Below are positions 76-19,589 of a DNA stretch of 20,000 bases, piece by piece; within the stretch, counting starts at the first letter, position 1, and each line of letters starts with the position of its first letter. Below the pieces are notes generated by a model, which saw nothing but the letters and a program-made list of their open reading frames with translations, made no database searches and was not told the origin of the DNA. The translations under genes and the position numbers were made by a program. Source of the stretch: Catajapyx aquilonaris (Eukaryota); assembly GCA_000934665.2 (NCBI GenBank), contig JYFJ02001718.1, forward strand, positions 51,089-71,088, read 5' to 3'.

Positions 76-2512
76 CTTGGCCCTCTTTTCCGCGTAAGCC
101 TGCATGTAAAAATTGAAGAAAAAAAGAAATATAATTGGCCCCAGTATGATTACCAAGTATTTTCCCACTAATGAACTGGGACAACCATTGAAGAATGTTT
201 GCGCCTGATGTAATGTTCCGAAGACAAACTGAACCTGCGAAAAAAAGACAACGAAAAACCATTGTATTTTTAACAGAACAAACACTTGTGTTTTATGTTT
301 ACCTTACCATCTGCATGAGAGTTAAGTACCGCTTCCACCATAAGAAGTTCTTGTATCCTAGTGCAGCTATTAAGTAGTAGGTGTACATCACGACATGAAT
401 GAAGGAGTTTATTAAAACTAAAAAGGTCCAGTGCCCCACTGAAAACACAATATAAGTTAATCCTAATACATTGGTCCATCACTTTGAAGGAATTAATACA
501 TAGTTAAATATTCTCGCTCTTAACTTACCTCCAGCAAATCTCGCCATATACCAAACAAAGAATGGCATTGTTGCATGATGTGCAATGTGAAGATTTGTGA
601 CTTGTCCAAAATTTTTGAGCAAATTGAAGAACACCTGCATGGTTATTTAAAAAATCGTGATCAAAAATTCAACCTTGGGAAATGTCCAGACCCACCGTGT
701 CCAGTAAATCCAAATATTTGGCAAAATAATACCACCCAATCGCTTGCACCATCTACAGAGAAAAGAAAGATGTAGAGTACATATTATTAAATCGCAATCT
801 AGCTTAACTGCAATGTAATAAACTTCATGAAATATTGCACACTGTACACTTGGAAAAATCCAAATATCATCGGAAAATACATAATGCACATACCGTCAAA
901 TGGTGGGAGATTGTGCCACTTTTGGAGGTTTTCCTTGCAAGCAAACCAGAGTAATTGATATTATATCAGAACGAATATTTTACACAACATTGCTGCACAT
1001 CTCACCTTTCAGATCATACGTGAAAATAATTTTTATGTACTAAGGGAGGGGAGATATAAATTCTTTTCTGTGCCACAATTTCACCTTCTCATCATATCTG
1101 GACATGGGGCCACGATGACCCACCCCACTGTGGGGGGGGGGGGGAGCTTCAATATCCCATTATTATAATTATTCAATTATTGAGCGAAATTGTTTATAAG
1201 AACTAAACAATGAGCACAATGGAATAAGACAACAATAATATATTGTTACAATAATGGGATGTCAATGGACCTTTGAGGCTTTCTAGTCCTTTGTGATTGA
1301 CGATTTCCGACCATGGGTGTCCAATCTCAAATTTCTTCCCTAGGCAGCCCCTACACACCCTAGAGAAGTCTGTCCAGAATTACAGGAAACACCTTGTTGA
1401 ATCAATACAGTTCTAATATAATAATAATCAGTGCAGGACGACTAAGGGACGTTAAGTGCAGGGCGTTAAGGGATTCAACCGTGCATTTGGTGAAAAAAGC
1501 ATGAAATTTGGTAAGAATGTCCCTGAGAGCATACTCTTCAAATTCAGATATGGCGCCAAGGCCGTTTTCGCCCAGGTGGCCCGTAATTGCGGGTTGGCTA
1601 CCTTGAAGCGAGTTAAAAGTCTTTTCTGAGCGTACTATGCCTCTCAGGCGGATATGTGCCAAACAAACGTTGTAGAGAAACATGCACTCTACAAAAAATT
1701 TCAAGTACCTTTTCCACGCACGGTCCGTATTTTCGTAGCTACAGCGACTTGAAAAAGACTTTTCACTCTCTGAAGGGTAGCCAACCCGCAATTACAGGCC
1801 TCCAGGGCGAAAACTGGCGTGCTGGCGCCATATCTGAATTTGAAGGGTATGCTCTCTGGGACATTTGTAGCAAATTTCATGCTTTTTTCACCAAATGCAC
1901 GGTTGACCCATTATTAGTCCCTTAACGTCCGGACTAAGTGTTATATTCGAGAATAAATATAAATAATAATAAATCAGATACCTTCATAGCTTGCGGGCTC
2001 TGTGAATAATCTGAAGGCTGGCAAGTGAAGCTGTATCCATTGAACCAACCTCCTTGAATGCACTAGAAGAGGAGGAAGAAACATTCAAATCATGGTCATA
2101 TCACCATCATCAGATATTCCCTGAATCCCATCAAACGGACACTGACCAAATAGACAATCCAGACGTTCAGAATCACTTGGAACGTATTGTACACTATTAG
2201 GACTTTTCTGAGCTGGAAAGGTTTCCTGCCAGTCATGAACCTCGGAAGGAGGTAACACACCAAATAAATGTAAACCAGCATGGATCCAAAGACAATAATG
2301 CCACTTTCCATCATCGGCAACGACTTGAAACGTAGGTCTGTAATGGAAAGTGAGCAATATACGTATTATTCACCAAGTAACTATACCAGGTCATACCAGC
2401 ACTGCCCGAGTCCAGGCACTTTTCTACCTTCATTGTCGTAAAATGCATAGTGGTATTGTTGAATCACAAACGTGCCCAAATTAGTTCGATTGTTTATTTC
2501 TGGATGCTCCAT
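76..2512 (-). CDS. Fatty-acyl elongase (ELO/ELOVL family), paralog 1; 3' end truncated by the window edge
   Basis: Exons (minus): 2428-2512, 2147-2337, 1982-2062, 696-752, 529-634, 308-438, 76-234. Introns are GT-AG and exon sizes match the paralogs. Motifs: KYLDLLDT, HIAHH (HxxHH), NSFIHVVMYTYY, LWWKRYLTLMQMVQ. An in-frame upstream ATG exists at 2551. A donor follows exon 7 at 75, with a branch-like CTAAC near the edge, so exon 8 is outside the window. Confidence 0.93.
1260..1397 (-). mobile_element. Possible Tc1/mariner-type terminal-repeat fragment (MITE end) in elongase-1 intron 3
   Basis: The reverse complement begins ACAAGGTGTTTCC...ACTTCTCTAGGGTG, resembling the TACAGGGTGT-type termini of Tc1/mariner-derived MITEs. 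Recognised from memory only; no partner end found. Confidence 0.3.
1430..1940. mobile_element. Non-autonomous inverted-repeat element (MITE/foldback-like), ~500 bp, in elongase-1 intron 3
   Basis: Arms at ~1475-1626 and ~1751-1906 are reverse complements, and 1475-1510 matches 1871-1906 perfectly over 36 bp. Outer GGGCGTTAAGGGA (1461-1473) pairs with TCCCTTAACGTCC (1918-1930). There is a small internal hairpin TGTAGAG..CTCTACA. No transposase and no clear TSD. Confidence 0.8.
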
Positions 2513-4654: not shown

Positions 4655-6044
4655 TTACAAAGTAGTGTTTATAAAATTGTGATTGCGATGATTATTTGAA
4701 CTTGTATTTCATTATCCCATGCTGGTGATTTGTCACTGTGTATTTTCTTACAAGGAATTTGATGGCACATATGATTTTGTATTCGGTATATGTTGATTTT
4801 TTTGCCACGTTACAGAATGAAAGCTGTGTTGACCAAACACACGTGTGTGTCCAGATTTGTTCCAGGGACACACCAGATATAAGACGAGATTGCAATGAGA
4901 AGGCTCAAAATTACCACCCCTTAAAAACCAGTAACAGAATTAGGATTTCTCAAATTTCTTTGCTACAATGTTTTAGTATCAGGATAATGAACATAAACCA
5001 AGAATATTATTCAATATTGGGCACACCATCTGGTACAAATCTGGCTGAACTGACATGGAATGACCCATATAAGAAACATCTAGAGAGGCAGCTACCTGAT
5101 ACAGCAAAACTGTATGAGCAACATTGCTAAATCAGAGGTATTATGGCAGAAAGTCAGCATGTTTGCAAAAATCTTGCTCACCTTAGTGTACAATATCATA
5201 ACGAGGTTTTTCTGTGTTGTTTTACTTGTTCCATTATAATACTAACTTGTAAAATTAAATGCCGTCTGCAATATTATCTTGCACGCTTACAAAATGTTAA
5301 TGAAGTTTTTCCCTCTGAGGAAAACAATCTGTATAATATCAGTCCTTGAAACAATTACAGTTTAAAGTCATTACTTTGTGTGTCTCATTGTGATTTTGAA
5401 CGCTGACGTTTTTTGACAAAATATTTATGCAACTATTCAGTAAGTTTGACTGCAGCATCCAGCTGTAAACGTAACCTACTATATTACGCAGTTGATTGAT
5501 TGTGGAAGAACCATCATACTTGCCTTTTTTTTCCACTTCCTGGGTTCGCATGTATTGACGTGGGTGATTTCTTTGTAGTATGTGCCAACATTCTTCGGAA
5601 ACCACAAAATAATGATGATTGCGGCAGAAATGAATTATGTTGCTCTTGCCCAACATCCCATTGCAGTATACCACTTAAAATCATCAACTGATTTTTTTTT
5701 GTTATGCGATAATTCTGTTTGTGTAATAATTGGATTTGTTCTCCAGTTGCAGGTCAAGTGATACACCATATAAGTCAGGCACTTCAGATCATCATTTGCT
5801 TGTTGCAAACTCTCCGTATGTCTCAGCATCTCCAAGTTGTTGAAATCACTCAACAGTAAGTATGGCTGCAGAGTCATCTTCCAGAAACCTTAATTTCGCC
5901 ATTAATTTTTGGTAATGTCTGTAGGAGCGCCATCATATTTGAAAGCTGGCTTATTTTTCATTTTATTTCACTTGGTCAATAAAATTTAATGTAAGTGTCA
6001 TAATGTCATAATGCAAATGTTATTTTTATATTCTTTTAATAGAT

Positions 6045-7968
6045 ATGGGCTACAAAAGTGATGTTGGCGTGGCCAACAGTCCAAGCACTAATGGAACAGC
6101 TGGAGTAAAATCTGAGTAAGAGTAATTATAATTTTACTACTATTACTGGTACTACTAACACAAGAAATGCACTGATAATAAGAATATTGTATTGTACAGG
6201 CGCAGTCTATCAGGAGAAAAGCCCAAAGTGACCTTCACTGGAGTCCTGGATGAAACAGACACGGATGTAACCTCTGAGGTGTTGGAATATGTGGCGAAAG
6301 AAGAGGCGGAAAAGAATTACCCTGTTGAAATTGTGTGGGGGAATGTTTACAAATTTGTGGTTTTGCATATCTTCGCCTTTTGCGGATTGTATAATGTCGT
6401 GACAGGAAGGGTTTCAGGAAAGCATATCCTTGCAAGTAAGTATCTAGAACAACTATGGTGTCCTACTAACTTAATATTCATTGCAAGGTGCACTTTAAAT
6501 AAAGTAATGGTGTAATGAGGAGTTTTAGAATCAAAGTTGTGAATCTTGCAATTGACAAATTGATTTCACTTCGCGAAACCCTCCCGCCCTTACATTACAA
6601 AAATTGTTAAGCTACACATAAATCAAATATTTGTTGATGTAGTAAACAATCCATATTCTTCCTACCCTCATCTTGGACCGTAGAGCTTGACAGTGTACCA
6701 TCAACAATACCCCATGTTCATAATTATTACGCTTAAAAAGTGTATATGAATTTATTTTAATTAATAACAATGATATTCTCTGCGAAGTTGTCCTATACAG
6801 TTTCATGCTCAACTTTGGCATCGCTGGAGGAGCGCACAGACTATGGGCCCACAAGGCATACAAAGCGAAACGTGTACTTCAGATCTTCTTGCTCTATCTG
6901 CAGACCGCTGCCGGACAGGTAATGCAGGTCCAATGCAGGTGGGAATGTCAGCACACATGTCCCTTTTGTCTGAATCACCTTTCAGAACTCCCTGTACGAT
7001 TGGGTTCGGGATCACCGTATGCACCACAAGTTCACCGAGACCAATGCAGACCCACACAGCATGAAGAGAGGCTTCTTCTTTGCTCACATGGGTTGGCTCA
7101 TGTGCAAGAAGCATCCGGACCTCAAGGCGAAGGGAAAGATGATTGACATGAGCGACCTGGAGAAAGATCCGATTGTTATGTGGCAACACAGGTTTGTAGG
7201 AACCAGGCTTTAATTTTTAGAAATGATATTAATTAGTAATTATGTTTGGGTGCTTCGGTGCTACAATTTTATAGTACACTTTAAGGCAGCTACAGTCAGC
7301 AATTTATTATAATTCCATGATGTTCCAGCATTTCATTCATTTCATTTACAGGAACTATGTGATGCTCTTCTACATCATTGGTCTTGTGATTCCAGTACTA
7401 GTATTGAGGGTGCTCACCCATGAAACGTGGCTATACATTTTCACAGCAACACTAACGAGATATGCAGTGGGACTTCATATTACCTGGCTCATCAACAGCT
7501 ATGCCCATGCTTTTGGAGACAGGCCGTATGACAAGTAAGTGGTCTAAGTGTGCATGTGCGACCAATTAAACACTCAACGCATCAGTTATGTGTCGAGTCG
7601 AATTTTGAACTCATTTCTACCCCTCCAGGGATGTACAGGCTACGAATTCGATATTCATGGGATACTTGGGAGTTGGAGAAGGCTTCCACAACTACCACCA
7701 CGTGTTTCCATGGGATTACAGAGCAGCTGAACTTTACTTTTATAAAGGGTCCAATCTGACTGGTCTGATGATCGATGCTTTTGCTAAACTGGGTCTGGCA
7801 TACGACCTGAAGACTGTGGATCAGAACATGATAAAGAACAGGGTTCTGAGAACTGGAGATGGAACTCACCACGTTTGGGGCTGGGGAGACAAGGACATTC
7901 CCAAACTCCATGTCGAGGCTACCATCACACTCAATGGGAAAGAAAGCCAAACCCACAAAAAGGATTGA
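6045..7968 (+). CDS. Integral-membrane acyl-CoA desaturase (SCD/Delta9-Delta11-like family), ~388 aa
   Basis: Exons: 6045-6115, 6200-6435, 6788-6918, 6986-7191, 7352-7534, 7629-7968 (1167 nt, in frame). Three His boxes: HRLWAH, HRMHH, HNYHH. Also TGVL, IVWGNV, ADPH..RGFFFAHMGWL, RPYDK, GEGFHNYHHVFPWDY, RTGDGTH..WGWGDKD. The first coding exon and the exon-3 acceptor (AAG at 6787) are the least certain parts. Confidence 0.95.
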
Positions 7969-8623: not shown

Positions 8624-10209
8624 TTATCCTTGCAAGCAAGTGAACTCCTTTATGTGGGATTGTACTTTTGCTATTGACACCTGAAAATAAGTTCAGAAAT
8701 ATATAAACTACATGCAATTTTCACTAGAATACTGGAAAATCTGCAATGTATAAGAGTACTTACGCTGCTATTTCTCCTTCCTTTGTAGGCTTGTGAGTAG
8801 AAATTATAAAAAAGCATCAGCAGGCTAGGTCCCAATGGGATGGTCAAAATTCTCGTAAATCTGGGATAGTTGCATTCGTTGAAGAACAATTGATATTCGT
8901 GAATAGCCAAGATAATGAACTGAGCCTGAAATTAAATAGTTTAATTATGGTAAATATGATCGCCGATTGTAGAAGACAACGTTGTCTTACCATTTGCATA
9001 ATAGTCAGATACTTTTTCCACCACAAGTATTTCTGGTAGCCTAATGCAGCCAGCAAGTAATACATGTACATTACTACGTGGACAAAAGAGTTGCACAGAA
9101 TCACCAATGTCCAGTGCCCACCTGTTAATGAAATTAATTGTACCACATGCAACACAGTCACAATATGCATGATAGTATTTTTGTCCAAGGAATATACTTA
9201 CCACCTATAAATCTTATTGTATACCACACGAAAAATGGCATCAACATGTGATGAAACATGTGAAGAAAACTGACTTGCCTGTAACTCTTCCGCAGTACAA
9301 AGAATGCCTAGGGTGTGAAAAATATGTCAGAATGTAGTATACCGTGTCTTTTGAAATACAGATTTAAACCGTACCGTGTCCAACCAATCAACAAACTTGG
9401 CAAATAGGTACCACCAACATGCATCCAACATCTGAAAACAGGCGTAATTAGTTTAAGAACACTGTTCGACAAGGAAGCATTTGCTCGGGTTATGATGTGT
9501 GTTTCAATACAGAATATACAATACAGAAAATACTTATTGAAACACACATCATAACCCCTAGAAAATGTTTCCTTGTCGAACAGTGGAATTGATCATAAGT
9601 ACAGATTCATAATGCAAGGGTCTGGCATACACAATTAAATATTGACCTTTTTCAAAACTACTTGACCCTGGTAAATAATGGTATAGCATGTACAGTTATT
9701 ACCGCCATTGCTTTCGGATTCCTGGAGAAATCTCCTGGTTGGCACCTGAAACTGTATCCATTGAACCATCCTCCTCTGACACACTGCAAATGATCATTTT
9801 GTTCTGAACATGTTTAATCATCCTTTGGACTTCATGTTCTCACCAGGATTATAATCCATATGTTCAAGGCTACTTGAAATGCGTTGTAGGCCATGATGAC
9901 TCTTTTCATCTGGAAAGGCTGTCGATCCACCATGAGCTTGGGAAGTGCATAACATGAGAGGAGCAAGTAGCCCAAGGTTGACCACACGATCAGGGAAGTG
10001 CTTCCCATCAAGGGCCACTCCATCATGCGAGGATCTGAAATGTACTGGCCATTGAAGCCTAATAGGTGTCAAAATAAACAATGTGATGCCTACATGGCAG
10101 AACACTTACCTCTATTTTTGTTTATGAGGAAATGGTACTGCCGAGTCATATATGGAACTAAAGAGGTAATATTCTCGCTTGTAATGTCACTCATGATGGC
10201 GAAGTTCAT
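8624..10209 (-). CDS. Fatty-acyl elongase (ELO/ELOVL family), paralog 2, ~294 aa
   Basis: Exons (minus): 10110-10209 (alternative ATG 10194), 9844-10034, 9703-9783, 9375-9431, 9202-9307, 8991-9121, 8764-8925, 8624-8680. Motifs: [53 protein letters not shown]. Ends ...KEFTCLQG*. Confidence 0.95.
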
Positions 10210-10211
10210 GA

Positions 10212-10622
10212 CTGTTGAGATTTAAAAATTTATTAGATTTATATGAGCGTATTTGAGCGATCAATATTGAACATTTGTAACGTAAGTCAAGAAACACAAT
10301 CATTTTTCCGTAGGTTTGAGTTATGTCGAAGTCCTGTAATATGTTGTCTCTGTATACTCAGCCATCACATTATGGACACAAGCACTGACCACACACTTGG
10401 ACTACAACGTAAGTAAATACCACAGAAAAATAATGTTAATAACATGAAAATTCTCACTCTTCAAAATGGTAAAATTGTCGTTTTCATTAGATCAAGCTAT
10501 GCAAACGACCCTTTTTCTTACCTTCTGAACTTCCAACAAAATGTTACCAACTGGACCCAGCTATAGGAGCAGTATTGCTCAGCACTGCTCTTGAGCATGA
10601 TATACTTTGCTGAACTTATATA
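10212..10622 (-). promoter_or_regulatory. Candidate TATA box, 5'UTR exon and 5'UTR intron of elongase 2
   Basis: Minus-strand TATATAA at 10622-10616, donor AAG|GTAAGA at 10521, and acceptor ...TCTCAACAG| ending at 10212, 2 nt before the ATG. Confidence 0.45.
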
Positions 10623-12659
10623 ACTTATACGAAGCGTGAAAAATTCATACTTTTCTCGTGTTATTATAACTAATTTTTAGTGTAGTTGCAACATTATCCC
10701 AGGAATTATTTTACTAGGGTCTTTGCGGGTGTGATATGGGCGGGATTGGATGTTTCCTGAGAAAAGTACGTATTTAAAAAAAAAGTTTGCGAAATATGCA
10801 CTGATAAAGTACACTCAATTGACATCATTTCCATTTGAGAAAATACCATGTGTGACGCAAGGATCAAACTAGTGACCTCAGAAGGGATACATTGTGGCCA
10901 CCACGTCTTTCCTGGAATACCCTTGGTTTTGAACCTCGAATAGATATGGGCTTGGTATCATATACATGGGACACTCCTGGGAGTATTTTTTGTTGCTTCA
11001 GTAGTAAAGAGCATGTCACTGTACAGTGCAAAACGAAGAATATATTAGTAAGTTCGTATAGAGATACAGTAGTGTGCATTTGCAATGGGAACTGACTTAC
11101 ACATAACAGTAGGCCTACTGTTAAGAAGCAGTAGTAATAATATCCCTGAGACGAGCCTGTGTGAAAGTGACGCTGGAGTTAAGTGTCTGGCACGCAAACA
11201 ACGAACAATATAATTATTATTTCGGTAGAAGGCTTGCATAATTATTATGATGGAAGTTTTCCAGTGTACGCGGAGTCAGAGGTTGGGAAAGGTTATGGGT
11301 AGGTTAAATAAAGGTTACAAATTTATGGCGCAGTAGGAACCGTAGGAATGTGCAATGATTTCTGCAAAGTGCAAATTTTCTAAACAGATCTGTTGGCCAC
11401 TACATAAGATAATATGACTGGTATAAGCTACAATTTTGTAATTTCAGTATATATACACTGTATATCACAGTATTATTGTTCCAAAGTTTTCAGATGTAAT
11501 GGAACCAAATAATATTATCAGTTTCTTGAGAATATATTTTCTCGATTACACAATCATGTTCATGATACCTTCAACAAGTAACACCGTATAAGATTATGCT
11601 GTAGCCCTATATATTACGCTACGCATAAAAATCTGTTTGTAAGTTTAGACCTAAATTGAAAGCTGTGTATCATTGCGGCTACGTCGAAATTTGCGATTTT
11701 TTTTTGGAAATGCCATTCAGTCGAGTGACACTTAGTTGGGCATGACATCATAATTTAAAATAAATATTTATGGAGAGAATATATGTACACATATTTCCGC
11801 ACGTCCTCAATAACTTTTAGCAAATTGCATTTAATTGTTATAACTGATACGCAGCAGCTTAATAAGAAGAGGCTTAGTTAAAAATCGCTGAAACATTCAC
11901 TTCAATTTTGAAACACTGCATAGCATGCGAAAGAACAATCGTATACAGGTGCAGACATGGCGTGAGAGGAAAATTCACTGTTATTAAATTACTGGCCGCA
12001 ATTGCTCTTGAGCTCTTCAACATGAAATCATTTTAATTGAAATGTTGCGCGTAATTACGTGAATGGCGCCACTTGAAAGAATTTGTTGAAAGAGCTCTGT
12101 CTGGGTGTTGATAAATGGCGATTGTACTCTCATGACTTACTGTACATGAACAGACATCAGTTGCAGATTAAATATTTTTCGTTCACCTTCTTATACTTGG
12201 TACAATAATAAATTATGTAACTTATGCCTATTATTAAGTACACATGATAATGGTTTTGAATAGAATCTTTCTGGGGCTATAATATAGCATTAAATATCAG
12301 TCCCGAAAAATGTAAAATAATAATTGCATCATTGTGCAACAAGTTTCTCGGAAGAAAGTTTGGATACGGCTTAAAGGAATGACATTGGACTAGGACAAGT
12401 GTTATTAATATTTCGTACTGAAAAGTATTTTTGCATCTCAGCAGTTCACGCAGGAGAAGATATTAAGTTATATCAAGAGCTATGATAGACCTCTATACCA
12501 TTTTAAGAGCTTAATTCCGGGTTCCTATTGTTGTCCTTCGAACACTTAAATATGCAATTATTTTCTCAGACTGGAAGTGACCTTCTTTAAAACATGTCAA
12601 TTAATTATGACCTCAGCTTTAAATGACGCAGCACTTTGGAATAATTGTTTTTTTTTGTC

Positions 12660-12693
12660 TGTGTGTATGTATGTGTGTGTGTGTGTTTGTGTG
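12660..12693. repeat. Imperfect (TG)n microsatellite
   Basis: TGTGTGTATGTATGTGTGTGTGTGTGTTTGTGTG, read directly. Confidence 0.8.
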
Positions 12694-12971
12694 GACTGGC
12701 GAATTTTTCTGTGAAACATACAATATCCAATAAAAGTATTTTGGGATGCGAATTATACAGTATACGGTTTATTATAGATAATTGCATTAAAATATATGTC
12801 CATGTAATGACTAAGGCTGTCACGTCTAAAAATGGAAACAGGCTACTACTTATGATGGAAAATTGATTTCATGATTGACTTTGTCAACTGTATTGTATAG
12901 TCAACGCCTCCGAGGATGTTGAACCGTTTCAGCTGCATTCTGTCTGGCCAGTAGTATCTTCATGTGCCTCA

Positions 12972-14956
12972 TTATGTGCGCAAACAAGCCATCTTTTTCC
13001 CATATAGATATACCATTTTAGAGATTCCGATATCCTGAAAAAATGAGTCAGTGTCATCGTAAAGATAAAATACTATATTCTTGTATCAAAGTGCAATTAT
13101 GTCTAAGTTATTTTCCAAGGAAAAAAAGGAGTAGTGACTTTCATCCAAACACGTTGAATATAATTATTTACCTTGCTGCTTTTTCGCTTGTAGGACTCTC
13201 TATAAAAATTGTAGAAGAGTGATAGGATGGTTACCCCCAACGGTAGGGCCAAAATTCTCGTAAATTTGGGATAATTGCATTCGATGAAATACAACTGGAA
13301 TTCATGGACCATCAATAATATGAACTGACCCTGTAGAGAGAAAAAAAAGTAGTGAGTAAATAACATAAGACTGTTAGGGCAATAAATAAATTGGAGATAT
13401 TTTTTTTTAAAAAAAGGGCATCCGTCCGAGAAGTCATTTAAGGAAAAGTAAAATAACTGCCCATTACGTTATTTAGGTCAGAAAAGTTTTGAGAGACATT
13501 CCTTAGTTTTCACAAAATTATTTGGATTGTCTATGAATAAATTTTGAGAATAAAATATTAAGCTTACATTATAATTTGATGAAATTTAATAAAATTGGAA
13601 GGTATATTATTCTGAATTATGTTATTGAATTATTATTTTAAAGTAACATTCAATCGATAATGTTGGGTTCTCTTCCACGTGGAATAAGAGTGAAAATAGG
13701 CTTAAAATAATTATTCAGGTGCAATACTGAGTCACAAATTACGTCACCATTTGCAGTGCAGTCAGGTACTTTTTCCACCACAAATATTTGTGGTAGCCCA
13801 GTCCAGCCAGTAAGTAGTAAGTGTACATGAGGATGTGAATGAAGGAGTTGCATATGATCAGTAGTGTCCAATGTCCACCTGAAAAAGTAAATGCCGATAA
13901 ATTCGCATTAGATTGAAGATAAGTACAGTTATCTAGTACAGCAGACAGCATATGACTTTACCTCCGATGAATCTGACGACATACCACGCCCAAAATGGCG
14001 TAGATATATGGTGGTACACATGCAGGAAGCTGACTTGCCCATAGCTCTTTCTCAGCACAAAAAATACCTAATCATCAGATATGTCCATATTAGAGCTCAC
14101 TCATTACGATGTACGTCGTAGAAACTGTTGCGCAATGAACTCGAGTCCTTACCGTGTCTAGCCAATCCACATATTTGGCGAGGAGGTACCACCAGCATGC
14201 ATACACCATCTGTAAGAAGAGTTACTTGAAGTACTGTATAATAAGCTACTGCCCAAGTTGAAGGTCCCATCAGTGGGAACGAAGAAACGTTGATTGATTT
14301 TGTCTCATTGCCACATTGTGTATAAATAGTGTGATAATATGAACAGCATTTCCACCTACCCTCATCGCCTTCGGATTCCTGGAGAAATCACTTGGTTGGC
14401 ACATGAAACTGTAACCGTTGAACCATCCTCCTTGGACACACTGCAAATCAGATCAGAAATCATGGCTCAAACTGACAACACCCCCAAAAAATGTGCTAAC
14501 CAGAGCAACAATCCAGGAATTCAACAGCACTTGAAACGCGTTGTAGACCATCAGCGTCTTCTGAAGTTTCATAGGTTGCTTCTTGGTCATGTATCTCGGT
14601 AGGGCAAAGCACACTGCAAACAGGTAAACCATGGCTGGTCCCAAGATGACAAAGGCACTTGCCATCAAAGGCAGCTCCAAGAAGCGAGGATCTAAAATGA
14701 TTTCAAAATCAAGTCAGTAAATGACCAAATTACATAGAGGCATATTTCCTCCGCGAAAACCAGTTTCACCAATATGCAATGTGACAATATTTGATTTCAG
14801 ACATAATATTATGTTAGATTCTTTTAGTGCTGTCAGACTTATACAATAGTTTAAAATACGCACAGTACCTTCATTGTCGTATAAGATGTAGTCATATTGC
14901 TTTATGACAAACGGAACCAATGTTGTCTCATTACTCGCTGCTGTCATGTACTCCAT
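12972..14956 (-). CDS. Fatty-acyl elongase (ELO/ELOVL family), paralog 3, 291 aa
   Basis: Exons (minus): 14869-14956, 14501-14691, 14360-14440, 14153-14209, 13962-14067, 13748-13878, 13172-13330, 12972-13034 (876 nt). Motifs: [56 protein letters not shown]. Ends ...[10 protein letters not shown] strong 5'UTR acceptor ends at 15016. Confidence 0.95.
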
Positions 14957-16608
14957 TATTATGACTCAAACTGCACCGTATCTTTCTAGGTACTGAACCA
15001 GAGGCAAAGAAGTGTCTGGATAAAAAAGAAAACTGTAATACCCTGAAAAAATGTTGCAAGGTAGAATCTATTATAAACGTTCGAGTACATCTTGAGTAGT
15101 AAATTATACAATTAACGGCTGACGTAAAATGAAATGGCACCTCTTTTTTCGGAATGCGTTTTTATTGTGGGCGGAGTTGGTATGTGTACAAAGCTAATAT
15201 GGGTGTGTTATGCGGTATGTGATCGTGACTTTATTTGTGGGAATTTTTAAGCCAAAATTGCATTCCTGGCTGTGAGATGAGAGATGAAAAAAAATGCAAT
15301 ATAAAGAGGAAGTACAAAATTTTAGAGTAGATGAACGCTGAGAAGGCCGTCCTTGCTTAACCTGATGATGCAATTAGCGCTATGATTGGTGATATGGGAA
15401 TTATTCTTTTCAGAGAACAATAATAATTATTTTAAGCAGTTGCTTCGGAACGTTTCCTCATATCAATACAGGTAAGTATTAACTGCTAATCTTAGGCCAA
15501 TCATTCATCAATAGAGTGAACAGTGAAGGGCTCTAATTTTACGATATGTGCAATATACACAATATCAGAAACTTCTCTTGGAATTACTAAGACTAGATGG
15601 GAATATTATTACATTATTTTGTAGAACTGTAAGCTCTAAAATGGCATGCAGAAACACTGCAACTGTGATTTTTTTTTCTTTAAAAACATGACGTAAATTC
15701 GGACATGCAAAACCTACGTCAAAGGCTGATGGAAAGATTCATGATTCACTGTTGAAGTTCCGGGTATTGCAGACTTGCGAAAAAATTTGCTCTTGACCAG
15801 TAACTTAGTGTTTTTGCTAACTTATTTCATTGATATCATTTATTAGGAAACTCCATTTCAAATACTTACAGCTTTTAATTTTTAAAAAAACATTTGCCAT
15901 CATATTTTGCTGTAACATTTTCATTCATGGCTGTATCAGCGAATGTTACGTGAATGGACCGAATTATTGCCATAGTGCGCAATTGGTATTCATTAATTAA
16001 ATCGCTCTAATTGGGGAATGTCGTTGTAATTAAACTATTCCCATCAATACCGGGCGTGTAACAGGGCGAACGTTAGTCAAAAAGAGAGACAGGGAAGACA
16101 ACTTTCCATACGCGGGATATACCGTACAGTACCATCTCTTCATAAAATAATAACATATTTAACACTGTATCGTCAACAATATATTATTACAAAGGTATAA
16201 TACTCGTATTGAGGACGCATCTTGTACAGTACAGTTATACCTCATACATTCGGTATAAAACTTACAGATGTCATTATCTTGAAGCAATAATTATATTATA
16301 AGCTCTTATACTGTGTAGGATTTTAACAGAGATTTTAACAGATCCTTGAAGGGGTATTCCCATCAACAAAGTTTTCGTGCATTTACAGTTGTTCGTGCAG
16401 GTGTGGTGAAATTGCAACATGCAGAAACACGTCAGAATAATGATGTAGTGTCACGGAAAGCTTAAAATGATTAGTTTAAAATGATTAGTTATTCTCATTT
16501 AGCAAATCCTACTGTTGCTAAACTCGTGTTTTTTTCGCAATACATCTCATCCCATCCATTAGAGGTCTACATAATATTTTTGATAACTTGACCCATATGT
16601 TATGATCT

Positions 16609-18006
16609 TCACGTTTGTAGACAAACAAACTTTCTTCCCTGTTGATAAGCCATTTCCACCGCTGTCATTTTCTGAAAATGGTCGGCATTAGTTCCATTAA
16701 AACGTCCTAATAATTTAACACATTTTCACTATTACCTTTAAATCTTTTTCCAAGTATGCCTTCATGTAGAAATTGACAAATAGGATAATTATTGATGGCC
16801 CCAAGGGAAGTGTCAAAAATTTTGTCAACTGCGCAGCGGAGCATTCATTGAAAAACGCCTGCAGCTGATGCATTATTATGACGACGAACTGAATCTGAAC
16901 AAAACGACATTTTTGTATCAATTGTATGTAGTCTCAGCTATAAAATAGTGCATACTGAGCACAATGTAAGTTTGTTACCATCTGCATGAGCGTTAAGTAT
17001 TTCTTCCACCAGAGGAAATTCTTGTATCCCAGAGCAGCTAACAGGTAATAAGTGTACATCAGTACATGAATGAAGGAGTTGCATAAAATGACGAAGGTCC
17101 AGTGTCCTCCTGGAAGTTCAATCAACTATTTACATAACTTGGTCCATTATTGTCGAACCAAGTTCATTATATTTGTCAGCTTACCTCCCGTGAACCTGCA
17201 GATATACCACAACCAAAATGGCATCGATATGTGATGATAAAGGTGAAGAAAGCTGACTTGTCGGAAACTCTTTCGTAATACGAAGAATACCTGCAGACTG
17301 CAAATGTCAGTGCCAAAATATTTAGCTCTAGTTTTTTCATACCCACCGTATCAAGGAAATCCAAATATTTGGAGATAAAATACCACCAAACAGCTTCCAC
17401 CATCTGCAGGCAAAGGGAGTAAATTTAAGTATGAAAAAATTTGAACGGTCATTATCACGAGTCAATCTGGTTTGTAAATAGCACATCACCATCAATGCTT
17501 TAGAGCTTCCTGAGAAGTCTCCAGGCTGGCACGTGAAGCTGTAGCCGTTGAACCAACCTCCTTGGACACACTGTACACGAAAAAAAAACCGTGTCACCAC
17601 ATCATGCTGCTAGAGCATTCAAAAACATGGACTGACCAGGTAAATAATCCACACGTTAAGAATCACTTGAAACTGGTTGTAGACCATAAGCACTACTCGG
17701 AGCTTGAAGGGTTTCCGCCCCATCATGAACTTCGGAAGAATGTAACACACCAGAAAAAAATACGTCACTAACGATCCAACAATAAGGGTCACACTTCCCA
17801 TCATCGGCAGCTTTGTGTAACGAGGGTCTGTAATGAAGAAAAAAAATTGCGACATAACAACCACGCACCATTACATGAAATTAAACTGTTGCATTATTCC
17901 AGTACTTTGGATTGCACTCACCTTCATTCGCATAGAGCAGATAATTGTACTGCTGAATAACGTAACTGACCAAATTGGTAGAATTTTCTGTTTCCATTAC
18001 TTCCAT
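16609..18006 (-). CDS. Fatty-acyl elongase (ELO/ELOVL family), paralog 4, 290 aa
   Basis: Exons (minus): 17922-18006, 17637-17827, 17490-17570, 17347-17403, 17185-17290, 16979-17109, 16736-16894, 16609-16671 (873 nt). Motifs: [56 protein letters not shown]. Ends ...GRKFVCLQT*. Confidence 0.95.
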
Positions 18007-19283
18007 CGTGTGGCTGGTTGCTTCTTACACAGGTGTACGAGCACTAATGGGCCACTAAAAGGCATGCCCACTTCCGCTTTGCCCTAAAGAGTCAGTCACG
18101 AAAAAGGCAATACGTGTATAGAGAGGGTCATGGTATCAGATTCTCCAGACATGCATGATCCCAGTGGCGTTATTTTGCCAAAGAGCAATTGCACTCAGTG
18201 GGAAAATGTGTCGTAATTTATCATTTTTGAGGGAATCTTTTCCCAAACCTTGAGCTTGATTGCACGAACTTGACGCGCAAATAAGGTTGTGTAATGCAGG
18301 GCAGCGTAAAGTCCACGATTTCTAAGAATGAAGAGATAATACGATGCCACTACTGTGATATCCCTTTTAATGAACTGATAGTTTCATTGTTGATATTGTT
18401 GACAGTGATGATGTTAATAAAATTCATTATCTTTTCCACAGAAGCTGCATGGATCTGGTCTATGGACTCTCATTATGCACTCGATGGGCTCGCCTGAGAG
18501 AAAATAATTATTAGTCAGTTTGCATTCAAAGGTACATATGGAAAGGTCTTGGCAAAAATAGCTTTCCATAATATGCAAAAATGAGTGTAGGTCGTTTTAT
18601 TTTCTCGAGTCCAGATTATTCCCTGCTGCTGGCACTCGAAATGTGATTTGTATGCAGATCCTTGTGTATGCATTTCCCTACTATGTGCTTGCCTCTCAGA
18701 TTGATAAATTTCCAGTACTATTAGTCATTGAACAAAAATCTAGTTACCTGCCTTTTCCATCACATCGATAATGTCTCAAATGGTTAACAGTTTGTGACTG
18801 ATTACCGTGATTGGTATAGCTCTTTATTTGTGTGATTGTGACATGTCAATTACATTTTTCGATATACCATTGCAATATAATTATGAAATCATGGGTCTGG
18901 TTGATTTTCTGACTCAAAAATAGGACTTCGTTTGGTGATTGGTCTTATATAATTATAGGGTTGTCATTTCTCAATAATAATGGCATGCAGCTACAAAAAA
19001 AACAATATTTTCTGAAAAGCTCCTGGGTATTTCAAACCCTCGTTTATTTAAATCGCCGGAAGTAAATTATATGTCCTTTTAAATCCACTTTTAATAATTA
19101 GATAATGGAATCATGTTTAAAAGAAATATACCAAGCCTTTAAAAATGGACTTTAGTCAAAATGAATTAGTAGCACCGATATTTTACATATTATGCTTTCT
19201 TGAAATGAGAAGGAACAACCATAGCTATGATGTTTTATAATCCTGCAGTGGAACTACTACTTCCAAGAGGTGGGTATCTACTG

Positions 19284-19589
19284 GTGGCTGGTAGGCGAAT
19301 GGTTAGCGTCGCCTCTTGCTGGTTCTAAGGACCCACGTTCGATCCCGGAGAGTCGCGACATTTTTTTCTTCTCTCTCCATTAAATGTGTGGGATAGAAGT
19401 TGCAAATGTAATAAAAATACCGCCTGTCCTGGGAAGGGGGTGGAGAGGGGGAAACCAGGAGACACTTGAAAGAGACATGAAGGTATAGAGGCCAACCCTA
19501 CACGAAATTTTGCCTATCTAAAATGGCGTCGACGATCTGCGCATCTCCACCCACAGCGGAAGAGGGCGGGGATTTATTATTTTATTAAT
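19284..19589 (+). mobile_element. tRNA-derived SINE-like element (or tRNA pseudogene plus flank)
   Basis: Pol III box-A-like TAGGCGAATGG (19292-19302) and box B GTTCGATCC (19337-19345). GTGGCT/AGTCGC can form an acceptor-like stem with G-U pairs, but the anticodon and T arms are poor. A GC-richer body ends in a TTA-rich tail at ~19574-19589. Confidence 0.6.

Follow-up and report, generated by a model that had tools for sequence, protein, structure and literature searches.

A 20,000-nt stretch of the genome of Catajapyx aquilonaris (assembly GCA_000934665.2, contig JYFJ02001718.1, positions 51,089 to 71,088), referred to below as the window and numbered from its first letter, encodes four tandem ELOVL-type elongases, all on the minus strand, and a single acyl-CoA desaturase on the plus strand. 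The elongase genes are named E1 to E4 in order of position. E2 (8624..10194, 289 aa), E3 (12972..14956, 291 aa) and E4 (16609..18006, 290 aa) are complete genes of eight exons each, and the fourth paralog, E1 (76..2512), is represented by exons 1 to 7 only. The exon 7 donor of E1 (GTAAAT) is found at position 75 and intron 7 leaves the left edge of the window after 75 nt, so that exon 8 of this gene lies beyond it. All three complete elongases end in Cys-Leu-x-x, encoded on a short terminal exon. This Cys-Leu tail is well supported as a feature of the sequence, and the role in lipid attachment discussed below is putative.

Exon coordinates of E2 were obtained from open frames and carried to E3, E4 and E1 by aligning translated stretches, and spliced models were generated by joining the exons by coordinate. 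The joined coding sequences of E2, E3 and E4 are open over 870, 876 and 873 nt, respectively, with a single terminal stop each. Exon lengths are, in order, 85 or 88, 191, 81, 57, 106, 131, 159 or 162 and finally 57 or 63 nt; phases are identical and all introns are GT-AG across the four paralogs. The terminal mini-exon of E2 (8624..8680, 57 nt including the stop) consists of 18 codons and TAA and ends IKEFTCLQG, that of E3 (12972..13034, 63 nt including the stop) of 20 codons and TAA, ending GKKMACLRT, and that of E4 (16609..16671, 63 nt including the stop) of 20 codons and TGA, ending GRKFVCLQT. It is separated from exon 7 by an intron of 83 nt in E2 (8681..8763, GTAAGT...TTTTCAG), 137 nt in E3 (13035..13171, GTAAAT...TTTTTTCAG) and 64 nt in E4 (16672..16735, GTAATA...TTTTCAG), whose donor is found at the identical codon position in all four paralogs. 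The mini-exons join exon 7 in phase 0 and their TTTTCAG acceptors rank with the best found in the four genes. Based on a threshold of 9 pyrimidines in 12, the first pyrimidine-rich phase-0 acceptor downstream of the exon 7 donor is that of the mini-exon in E3 and E4, and the E2 acceptor, acttattttcag, falls marginally below this threshold. The mini-exons are very probably genuine terminal coding exons.

Five exon pieces from E1 to E4 matched the Pfam ELO family (PF01151) with E-values from 7e-6 to 6e-13, and four of these five single-exon matches exceed the gathering score of 27 bits. Pfam ELO matches were located on exon 6 of E3 and exon 2 of E4, and exon 7 of E2 (8764..8925), encoding the final transmembrane segment and the beginning of the tail, corresponds to positions 184–239 of the 242-position profile. 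An HxxHH box is present in exon 5 of all four spliced models, together with the KxxD/ExxDT, NxxxHxxMYxYY and TxxQxxQ signature blocks, named as in PMC8073319. Exon 6 of E2 matched one solved structure only, human ELOVL7 (6Y7F, residues 167–212, E 5e-11), and a search with exon 6 returned insect and crustacean ELOVL7/AAEL008004-like proteins as the closest database relatives, with 59–78% identity over this exon. ELOVL7 is described (bioRxiv 10.1101/2020.11.11.378570) as having seven transmembrane helices, a lumenal loop between helices 6 and 7 and a tunnel open to the cytoplasm. By homology to human ELOVL7, the tails of E2 to E4 are predicted to be cytosolic, where prenyl- and acyltransferases could reach them. 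Around the histidine box, E1 differs at positions that are otherwise shared by the paralogs: its exon 5 (529–634, minus strand) carries an H-I-A-H-H box and N-L-L-K where E2 to E4 have V-L-R-K, which may reflect altered activity or degeneration.

The original prediction, made from the letters of this DNA, had described three complete elongases that end in C-L-x-x on a dedicated mini-exon, keep Cys at -4, Leu at -3 and basic residues just upstream within otherwise divergent last exons, and have no di-lysine signal. This description holds throughout. The peptides are found in the sequence exactly as written, on GT-AG-bounded, phase 0 exons. Cys at position -4 and Leu at -3 are present in all three tails, as is a basic residue at -8; a second basic residue is found at -7 in two of them, followed by F or M at -6 and T, A or V at -5. 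The last-nine block of E2 to E4 can be written as [KR]-[KE]-[FM]-[TAV]-C-L-[QR]-[GT]-end. A di-lysine signal of the endoplasmic reticulum (ER), defined here as KKxx/KxKxx with Lys at -3 plus Lys at -4 or -5, is absent from all three tails, which have Leu at -3, Cys at -4 and T, A or V at -5, and none of 20 candidate terminal exons further downstream would provide one. Amino acid identity between copies drops from 59–62% in exons 1 to 7 to 20–35% in exon 8, and what similarity there is lies at the very end: the sum-of-pairs BLOSUM62 score is 67 for the last nine residues and 0 for positions -10 to -18, with none of 20000 within-peptide shuffles reaching 67.

Conservation of this block is set against extensive divergence of the genes, which are old duplicates. 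Synonymous difference (pS) over exons 1 to 7 is 0.63–0.85 between paralogs and saturated, with Jukes-Cantor dS values of 1.4, 2.2 or undefined. The 120 nt past the stop codons do not align between copies (z -0.7 to 0.4) and exon 8 of E2 and E4 shows no alignment at the nucleotide level (z 0.3). That the last-nine block was nevertheless kept, despite saturated synonymous sites and unalignable 3' flanks, indicates that the tail is under selection. Cys is encoded by TGC, TGT and TGT and Leu by TTG, TTG and CTA in E2, E3 and E4, respectively, and these synonymous changes indicate selection on amino acids, not RNA. Constraint on exon 8 overall is weak (nonsynonymous difference, pN, 0.42–0.51; pS 0.57–0.89), and the sequence evidence shows amino acid-level purifying selection on the Cys-Leu block within it. 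Unspliced read-through into intron 7 would add unrelated tails of 7, 22 and 29 residues to the three complete proteins and 20 residues to E1.

To place the four genes among their relatives, a FastTree tree was built from exons 1 to 7 of E1 to E4 and 74 complete-looking relatives, with the tail omitted. E1 to E4 form a single clade with a support of 100 and a long stem, within which E4 and E1 are sisters (97), and this clade is placed inside the radiation of arthropod ELOVL7/AAEL008004-like elongases. The four copies thus form a lineage-specific arthropod ELOVL clade. Given this clade, the tail motif is no younger than the last ancestor shared by E2, E3 and E4, and its presence is predicted in E1 as well. 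The tree neighbours of E1 to E4, which are only weakly joined to them, have lysine-rich tail ends.

Outside the clade, a genuine Cys at -4 was found in none of 270 database proteins, three apparent cases being truncated or unspliced fragments, and in none of 73 untruncated complete-looking relatives. The exon 6 search yielded 120 arthropod ELOVLs, the sole Cys at -4 among them belonging to a fragment truncated within exon 7. A profile search with the four exon 7 peptides against 1.84 billion representatives gave 318 matches with E <= 0.001 (best 57.7 bits); among the best 150 of these 318, two have Cys at -4, both of them unspliced fragments whose ends are unrelated. Exon 7 of E2 and that of E3 gave no matches in word-index protein searches, and none were obtained in scans of genome contigs and viral contigs. 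A metagenome scan detected four loci, namely two near-identical insect-like genes, one further relative and one doubtful match, and the tails of the three metagenome relatives are contiguous with exon 7 and end in EKKLA or ERKKA. Strict KKxx/KxKxx ends are present in 28 of the 74 complete-looking relatives. Di-lysine is thus common in arthropod ELOVLs and far from universal, and for this group the original prediction overstates matters in taking KKxx/KxKxx as the usual ELOVL ending. Other putative retention motifs, for example RXR, have been described in crustacean Elovls (PMC8073319).

Three candidate parallels or extensions were rejected. An internal G-A-C-M-P-V-[LM]-[DE] motif occurs in the long cytosolic tail of one insect ELOVL subgroup (AAEL008004-like, with named members from a planthopper and a biting midge; proteins P0189, P0193, P0208, P0271 and P0272 and locus L001/L002, 2022–2100), and in several unspliced fragments of this subgroup an intron seems to come after G-A-C-M. 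Homology of the E2 to E4 tail to this motif was rejected, as the subgroup falls in a different clade of the tree; its Cys is a second conserved tail cysteine in ELOVLs, unrelated to that of E2 to E4. The GCLQ string in two bee 'stuck in traffic' tails was rejected as a parallel because other bees in the set do not conserve it. The proposal that the position of intron 7 is widespread, judged from unspliced fragments by a Val after profile position 53, was likewise dropped, as 14 of 146 is not clearly above background. As a separate observation, protein P0121, from a 2.9 Mb ENA contig, is a 144-aa open frame with two tandem exon-7-like segments and could reflect duplication of exon 7, perhaps into mutually exclusive copies, in the elongase gene of another species.

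All three tails have Cys four residues from the C-terminus, the arrangement of a CaaX box. The three tetrapeptides were looked up in two yeast screens that cover all 8000 CXXX sequences, with the yeast enzymes serving as a proxy for those of arthropods; specificity of farnesyltransferase (FTase) is reported as conserved between yeast and human (PMC11152559). FTase data were taken from the Ydj1 CXXX screen (PMC10320760), in which the authors use a summed heat-map (HM) cut-off of 3. CLQT (EF 1.55, HM 4.51) and CLQG (EF 1.22, HM 3.96) are above this cut-off, with EF values near those of the farnesylated non-canonical controls CASQ (1.608) and CKQQ (1.627) (PMC10320760). In the farnesylated CKQX series, which shares Gln at a2 with CLQT and CLQG, 17 of 20 X residues are positive. 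Ras-type HM scores of the three tails are 0.87–1.40. Since most CXXX sequences support growth in the Ydj1 screen (PMC10320760), passing it says little.

The explanation we favour, tentatively and at somewhat less than even confidence, is that the Cys is lipidated, with S-acylation ahead of farnesylation as the kind of lipid. The mini-exons would give each enzyme a short cytosolic tail whose last nine residues form a motif anchored at the C-terminus (basic, any residue, F or M, small, Cys, Leu, Q or R, G or T, end), in the place where relatives have di-lysine or a long unconserved tail. The lone conserved cytosolic Cys, beside basic and hydrophobic residues, would be the attachment site of a lipid that holds the tail at the ER membrane next to the mouth of the acyl-CoA tunnel. 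Either lipid would alter the placement of the tail at the membrane and could thereby affect ER retention or access to the active site. Two features keep the lipid idea alive when taken together: exact retention of the protein end favours a motif recognised by way of the free C-terminus, and a lone conserved Cys beside basic and hydrophobic residues favours lipidation. S-acylation would be somewhat more likely than farnesylation because it has no a2 or X rules and fits all three tails, whereas farnesylation fits CLQG and CLQT and not CLRT.

A number of points weigh against lipidation. S-acylation has no sequence signature and the preference for it rests on context; moreover, S-acylation would not need Cys at exactly -4 in all copies, which fits a motif read from the C-terminus better. 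The pattern is carried by three sequences of common ancestry, from one gene cluster in one genome, and no orthologue of the E1 to E4 clade was found in the protein, profile, metagenome, genome-contig and viral-contig searches. With regard to prenylation, CLRT falls below the cut-off of the FTase screen (EF 0.13, HM 1.96), and all three tetrapeptides are depleted in the screen for geranylgeranyltransferase I (GGTase-I; PMC11304957), with 42 °C scores of 0.083 for CLQG, 0.053 for CLQT and 0.082 for CLRT, thermotolerance in that screen appearing at scores of 0.9–5.8 (PMC11304957). GGTase-I substrates would be recognised by X = L, F, I or M or by enrichment in the screen, and X is G, T and T here. 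Geranylgeranylation should be expected for none of the three tails.

Of the explanations that compete with lipidation, the one that survives best, possible if on the unlikely side, is a lipid-free peptide motif, in which the side chains of Cys and Leu would be recognised at a set spacing from the free carboxylate, be it as a sorting or ER-retention signal, as a contact with a subunit of the elongation complex or as a regulatory lid. The conserved block extends over nine residues up to the C-terminus, including Leu at -3, F or M at -6 and the basic residue at -8, which exceeds what a lipid acceptor needs. The di-lysine of many relatives (the 28 of 74 above) is absent here, and crustacean Elovls are described with putative retention motifs of other kinds, such as RXR. 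On the other hand, the tail fits no C-terminal class that we could name and is not KKxx. PDZ ligands need a hydrophobic last residue, which the tails of E2 to E4 do not have. The C-terminal -QG of E2 resembles the glycine-end class of C-degrons; the tails of E3 and E4 end in Thr. A conserved Cys that stands alone in the reducing environment of the cytosol is also more typical of lipidation than of binding.

The original prediction had proposed that these elongases may be prenylated or S-acylated. Its strict form, that the tails are non-canonical CaaX boxes, is in our estimate unlikely. They would be farnesylated by FTase without cleavage, following the 'shunted' route of Ydj1, Pex19 and Lkb1, in at least E2 and E4. 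This claim stands in part: the predicted cytosolic location of the tail, Cys at exactly -4 in all three proteins despite mini-exons of 18 and 20 codons, and the screen values of CLQT and CLQG with their a2 Gln are in its favour, and these two tails could be farnesylated without cleavage. CLRT should not be, as charged a2 residues are strictly not tolerated by FTase (PMC10320760), and its failure counts mildly against a prenylation function common to all three copies. The Ras-type HM scores and the readiness with which CXXX sequences react in the Ydj1 assay count against farnesylation as well. The pattern of conservation is also inverted relative to CaaX logic: a1 is Leu in all three tails, and a2 (Q, R, Q) and X (G, T, T) differ between them. 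Selection for FTase recognition would predict the reverse, a1 being the position to which FTase is least sensitive. To our knowledge, prenylated polytopic membrane enzymes are rare. A full-text literature search, judged by titles and abstracts, found no elongase described as prenylated or as lipidated at the C-terminus, in agreement with the earlier statement that no precedent was known. Still less probable, though the most consequential version, would be an arthropod elongase clade farnesylated on a non-canonical C-L-Q-x box on its own last exon, as the first prenylated polytopic elongase. If this were true, very-long-chain fatty acid synthesis would be tied to isoprenoid supply, and the CLRT paralog would be a copy that escaped from, or changed in, such control.

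Finally, it is very unlikely that the mini-exons are unused, with proteins ending by read-through of intron 7 and the resemblance being an ancestral remnant: the weak constraint on exon 8 as a whole and the missing E2/E4 nucleotide alignment would fit, but the read-through tails are wholly different in length and sequence, neutral sequence at such divergence is unalignable, as seen in the 3' flanks (z about 0), and acceptor, phase, open frame, Cys-Leu with synonymous changes and stop position are kept in all three genes.

Several other features are present in the window. The desaturase gene is multi-exon (6040–7968, plus strand), lies between E1 and E2 and is convergent with E2, the 3' ends being about 650 nt apart. 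Single exons of this gene gave two weak FA_desaturase (PF00487) matches that do not reach the gathering score (E 0.0035 and 0.0083). A foldback element at 1475–1906, which looks like an insertion of the miniature inverted-repeat transposable element type, is located within the long intron 3 of E1. Its outer arms (1475–1558 and 1823–1906) are 84 nt long and 94% complementary and its inner arms (1557–1625 and 1753–1821) are 84% complementary. The foldback insertion accounts for the length of this intron, about 1.2 kb compared with short introns in the paralogs. Directly upstream of the E1 start codon there is a perfect (ATC)n/(GAT)n microsatellite, about 50 nt long (2699–2748). A tRNA-like segment at 19280–19360 contains a B-box-like sequence, GTTCGATCCCGG; ARAGORN calls no tRNA there, and the segment may be a tRNA-derived short interspersed nuclear element.

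Compared with known systems, E1 to E4 share with the ELOVL7/ELO family the PF01151 profile, the HxxHH box and signature blocks, the exon 6 alignment and a predicted seven-transmembrane topology. Unlike that family, E2 to E4 end in C-L-x-x on an exon of their own of 57–63 nt, without lysine at -3, -4 or -5, and they also differ from their arthropod ELOVL7/AAEL008004-like relatives, whose tails are long with di-lysine-like or unconserved ends. ER retrieval is regarded as the main role of ELOVL tails, and a Cys-Leu end kept by selection on a cytosolic tail would be another means of positioning or regulating an elongase. If the Cys is lipidated, location or activity of the enzyme could respond to acyl-CoA or isoprenoid levels, which would make it relevant to the lipid, cuticle and pheromone chemistry of arthropods. 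The boxes of Ydj1 (CASQ), Lkb1 and Pex19 (CKQQ) and Nap1 (CKQS) have Cys at -4 and a polar a2 like E2 to E4, and CLQT and CLQG score like the shunted boxes CASQ and CKQQ in the Ydj1 screen. One of the three tails, CLRT, is unlike them in having a charged, forbidden a2. Carriers of shunted boxes are soluble proteins, whereas E2 to E4 are predicted seven-transmembrane enzymes. The nearest documented parallel is ALDH3B2, a lipid-metabolic enzyme acting on fatty aldehyde whose localisation is set by a C-terminal lipid: according to a review (PMC13314531), it needs geranylgeranylation for lipid-droplet targeting. Unlike E2 to E4, ALDH3B2 belongs to an unrelated family, is not polytopic and carries a canonical GGTase-I box.

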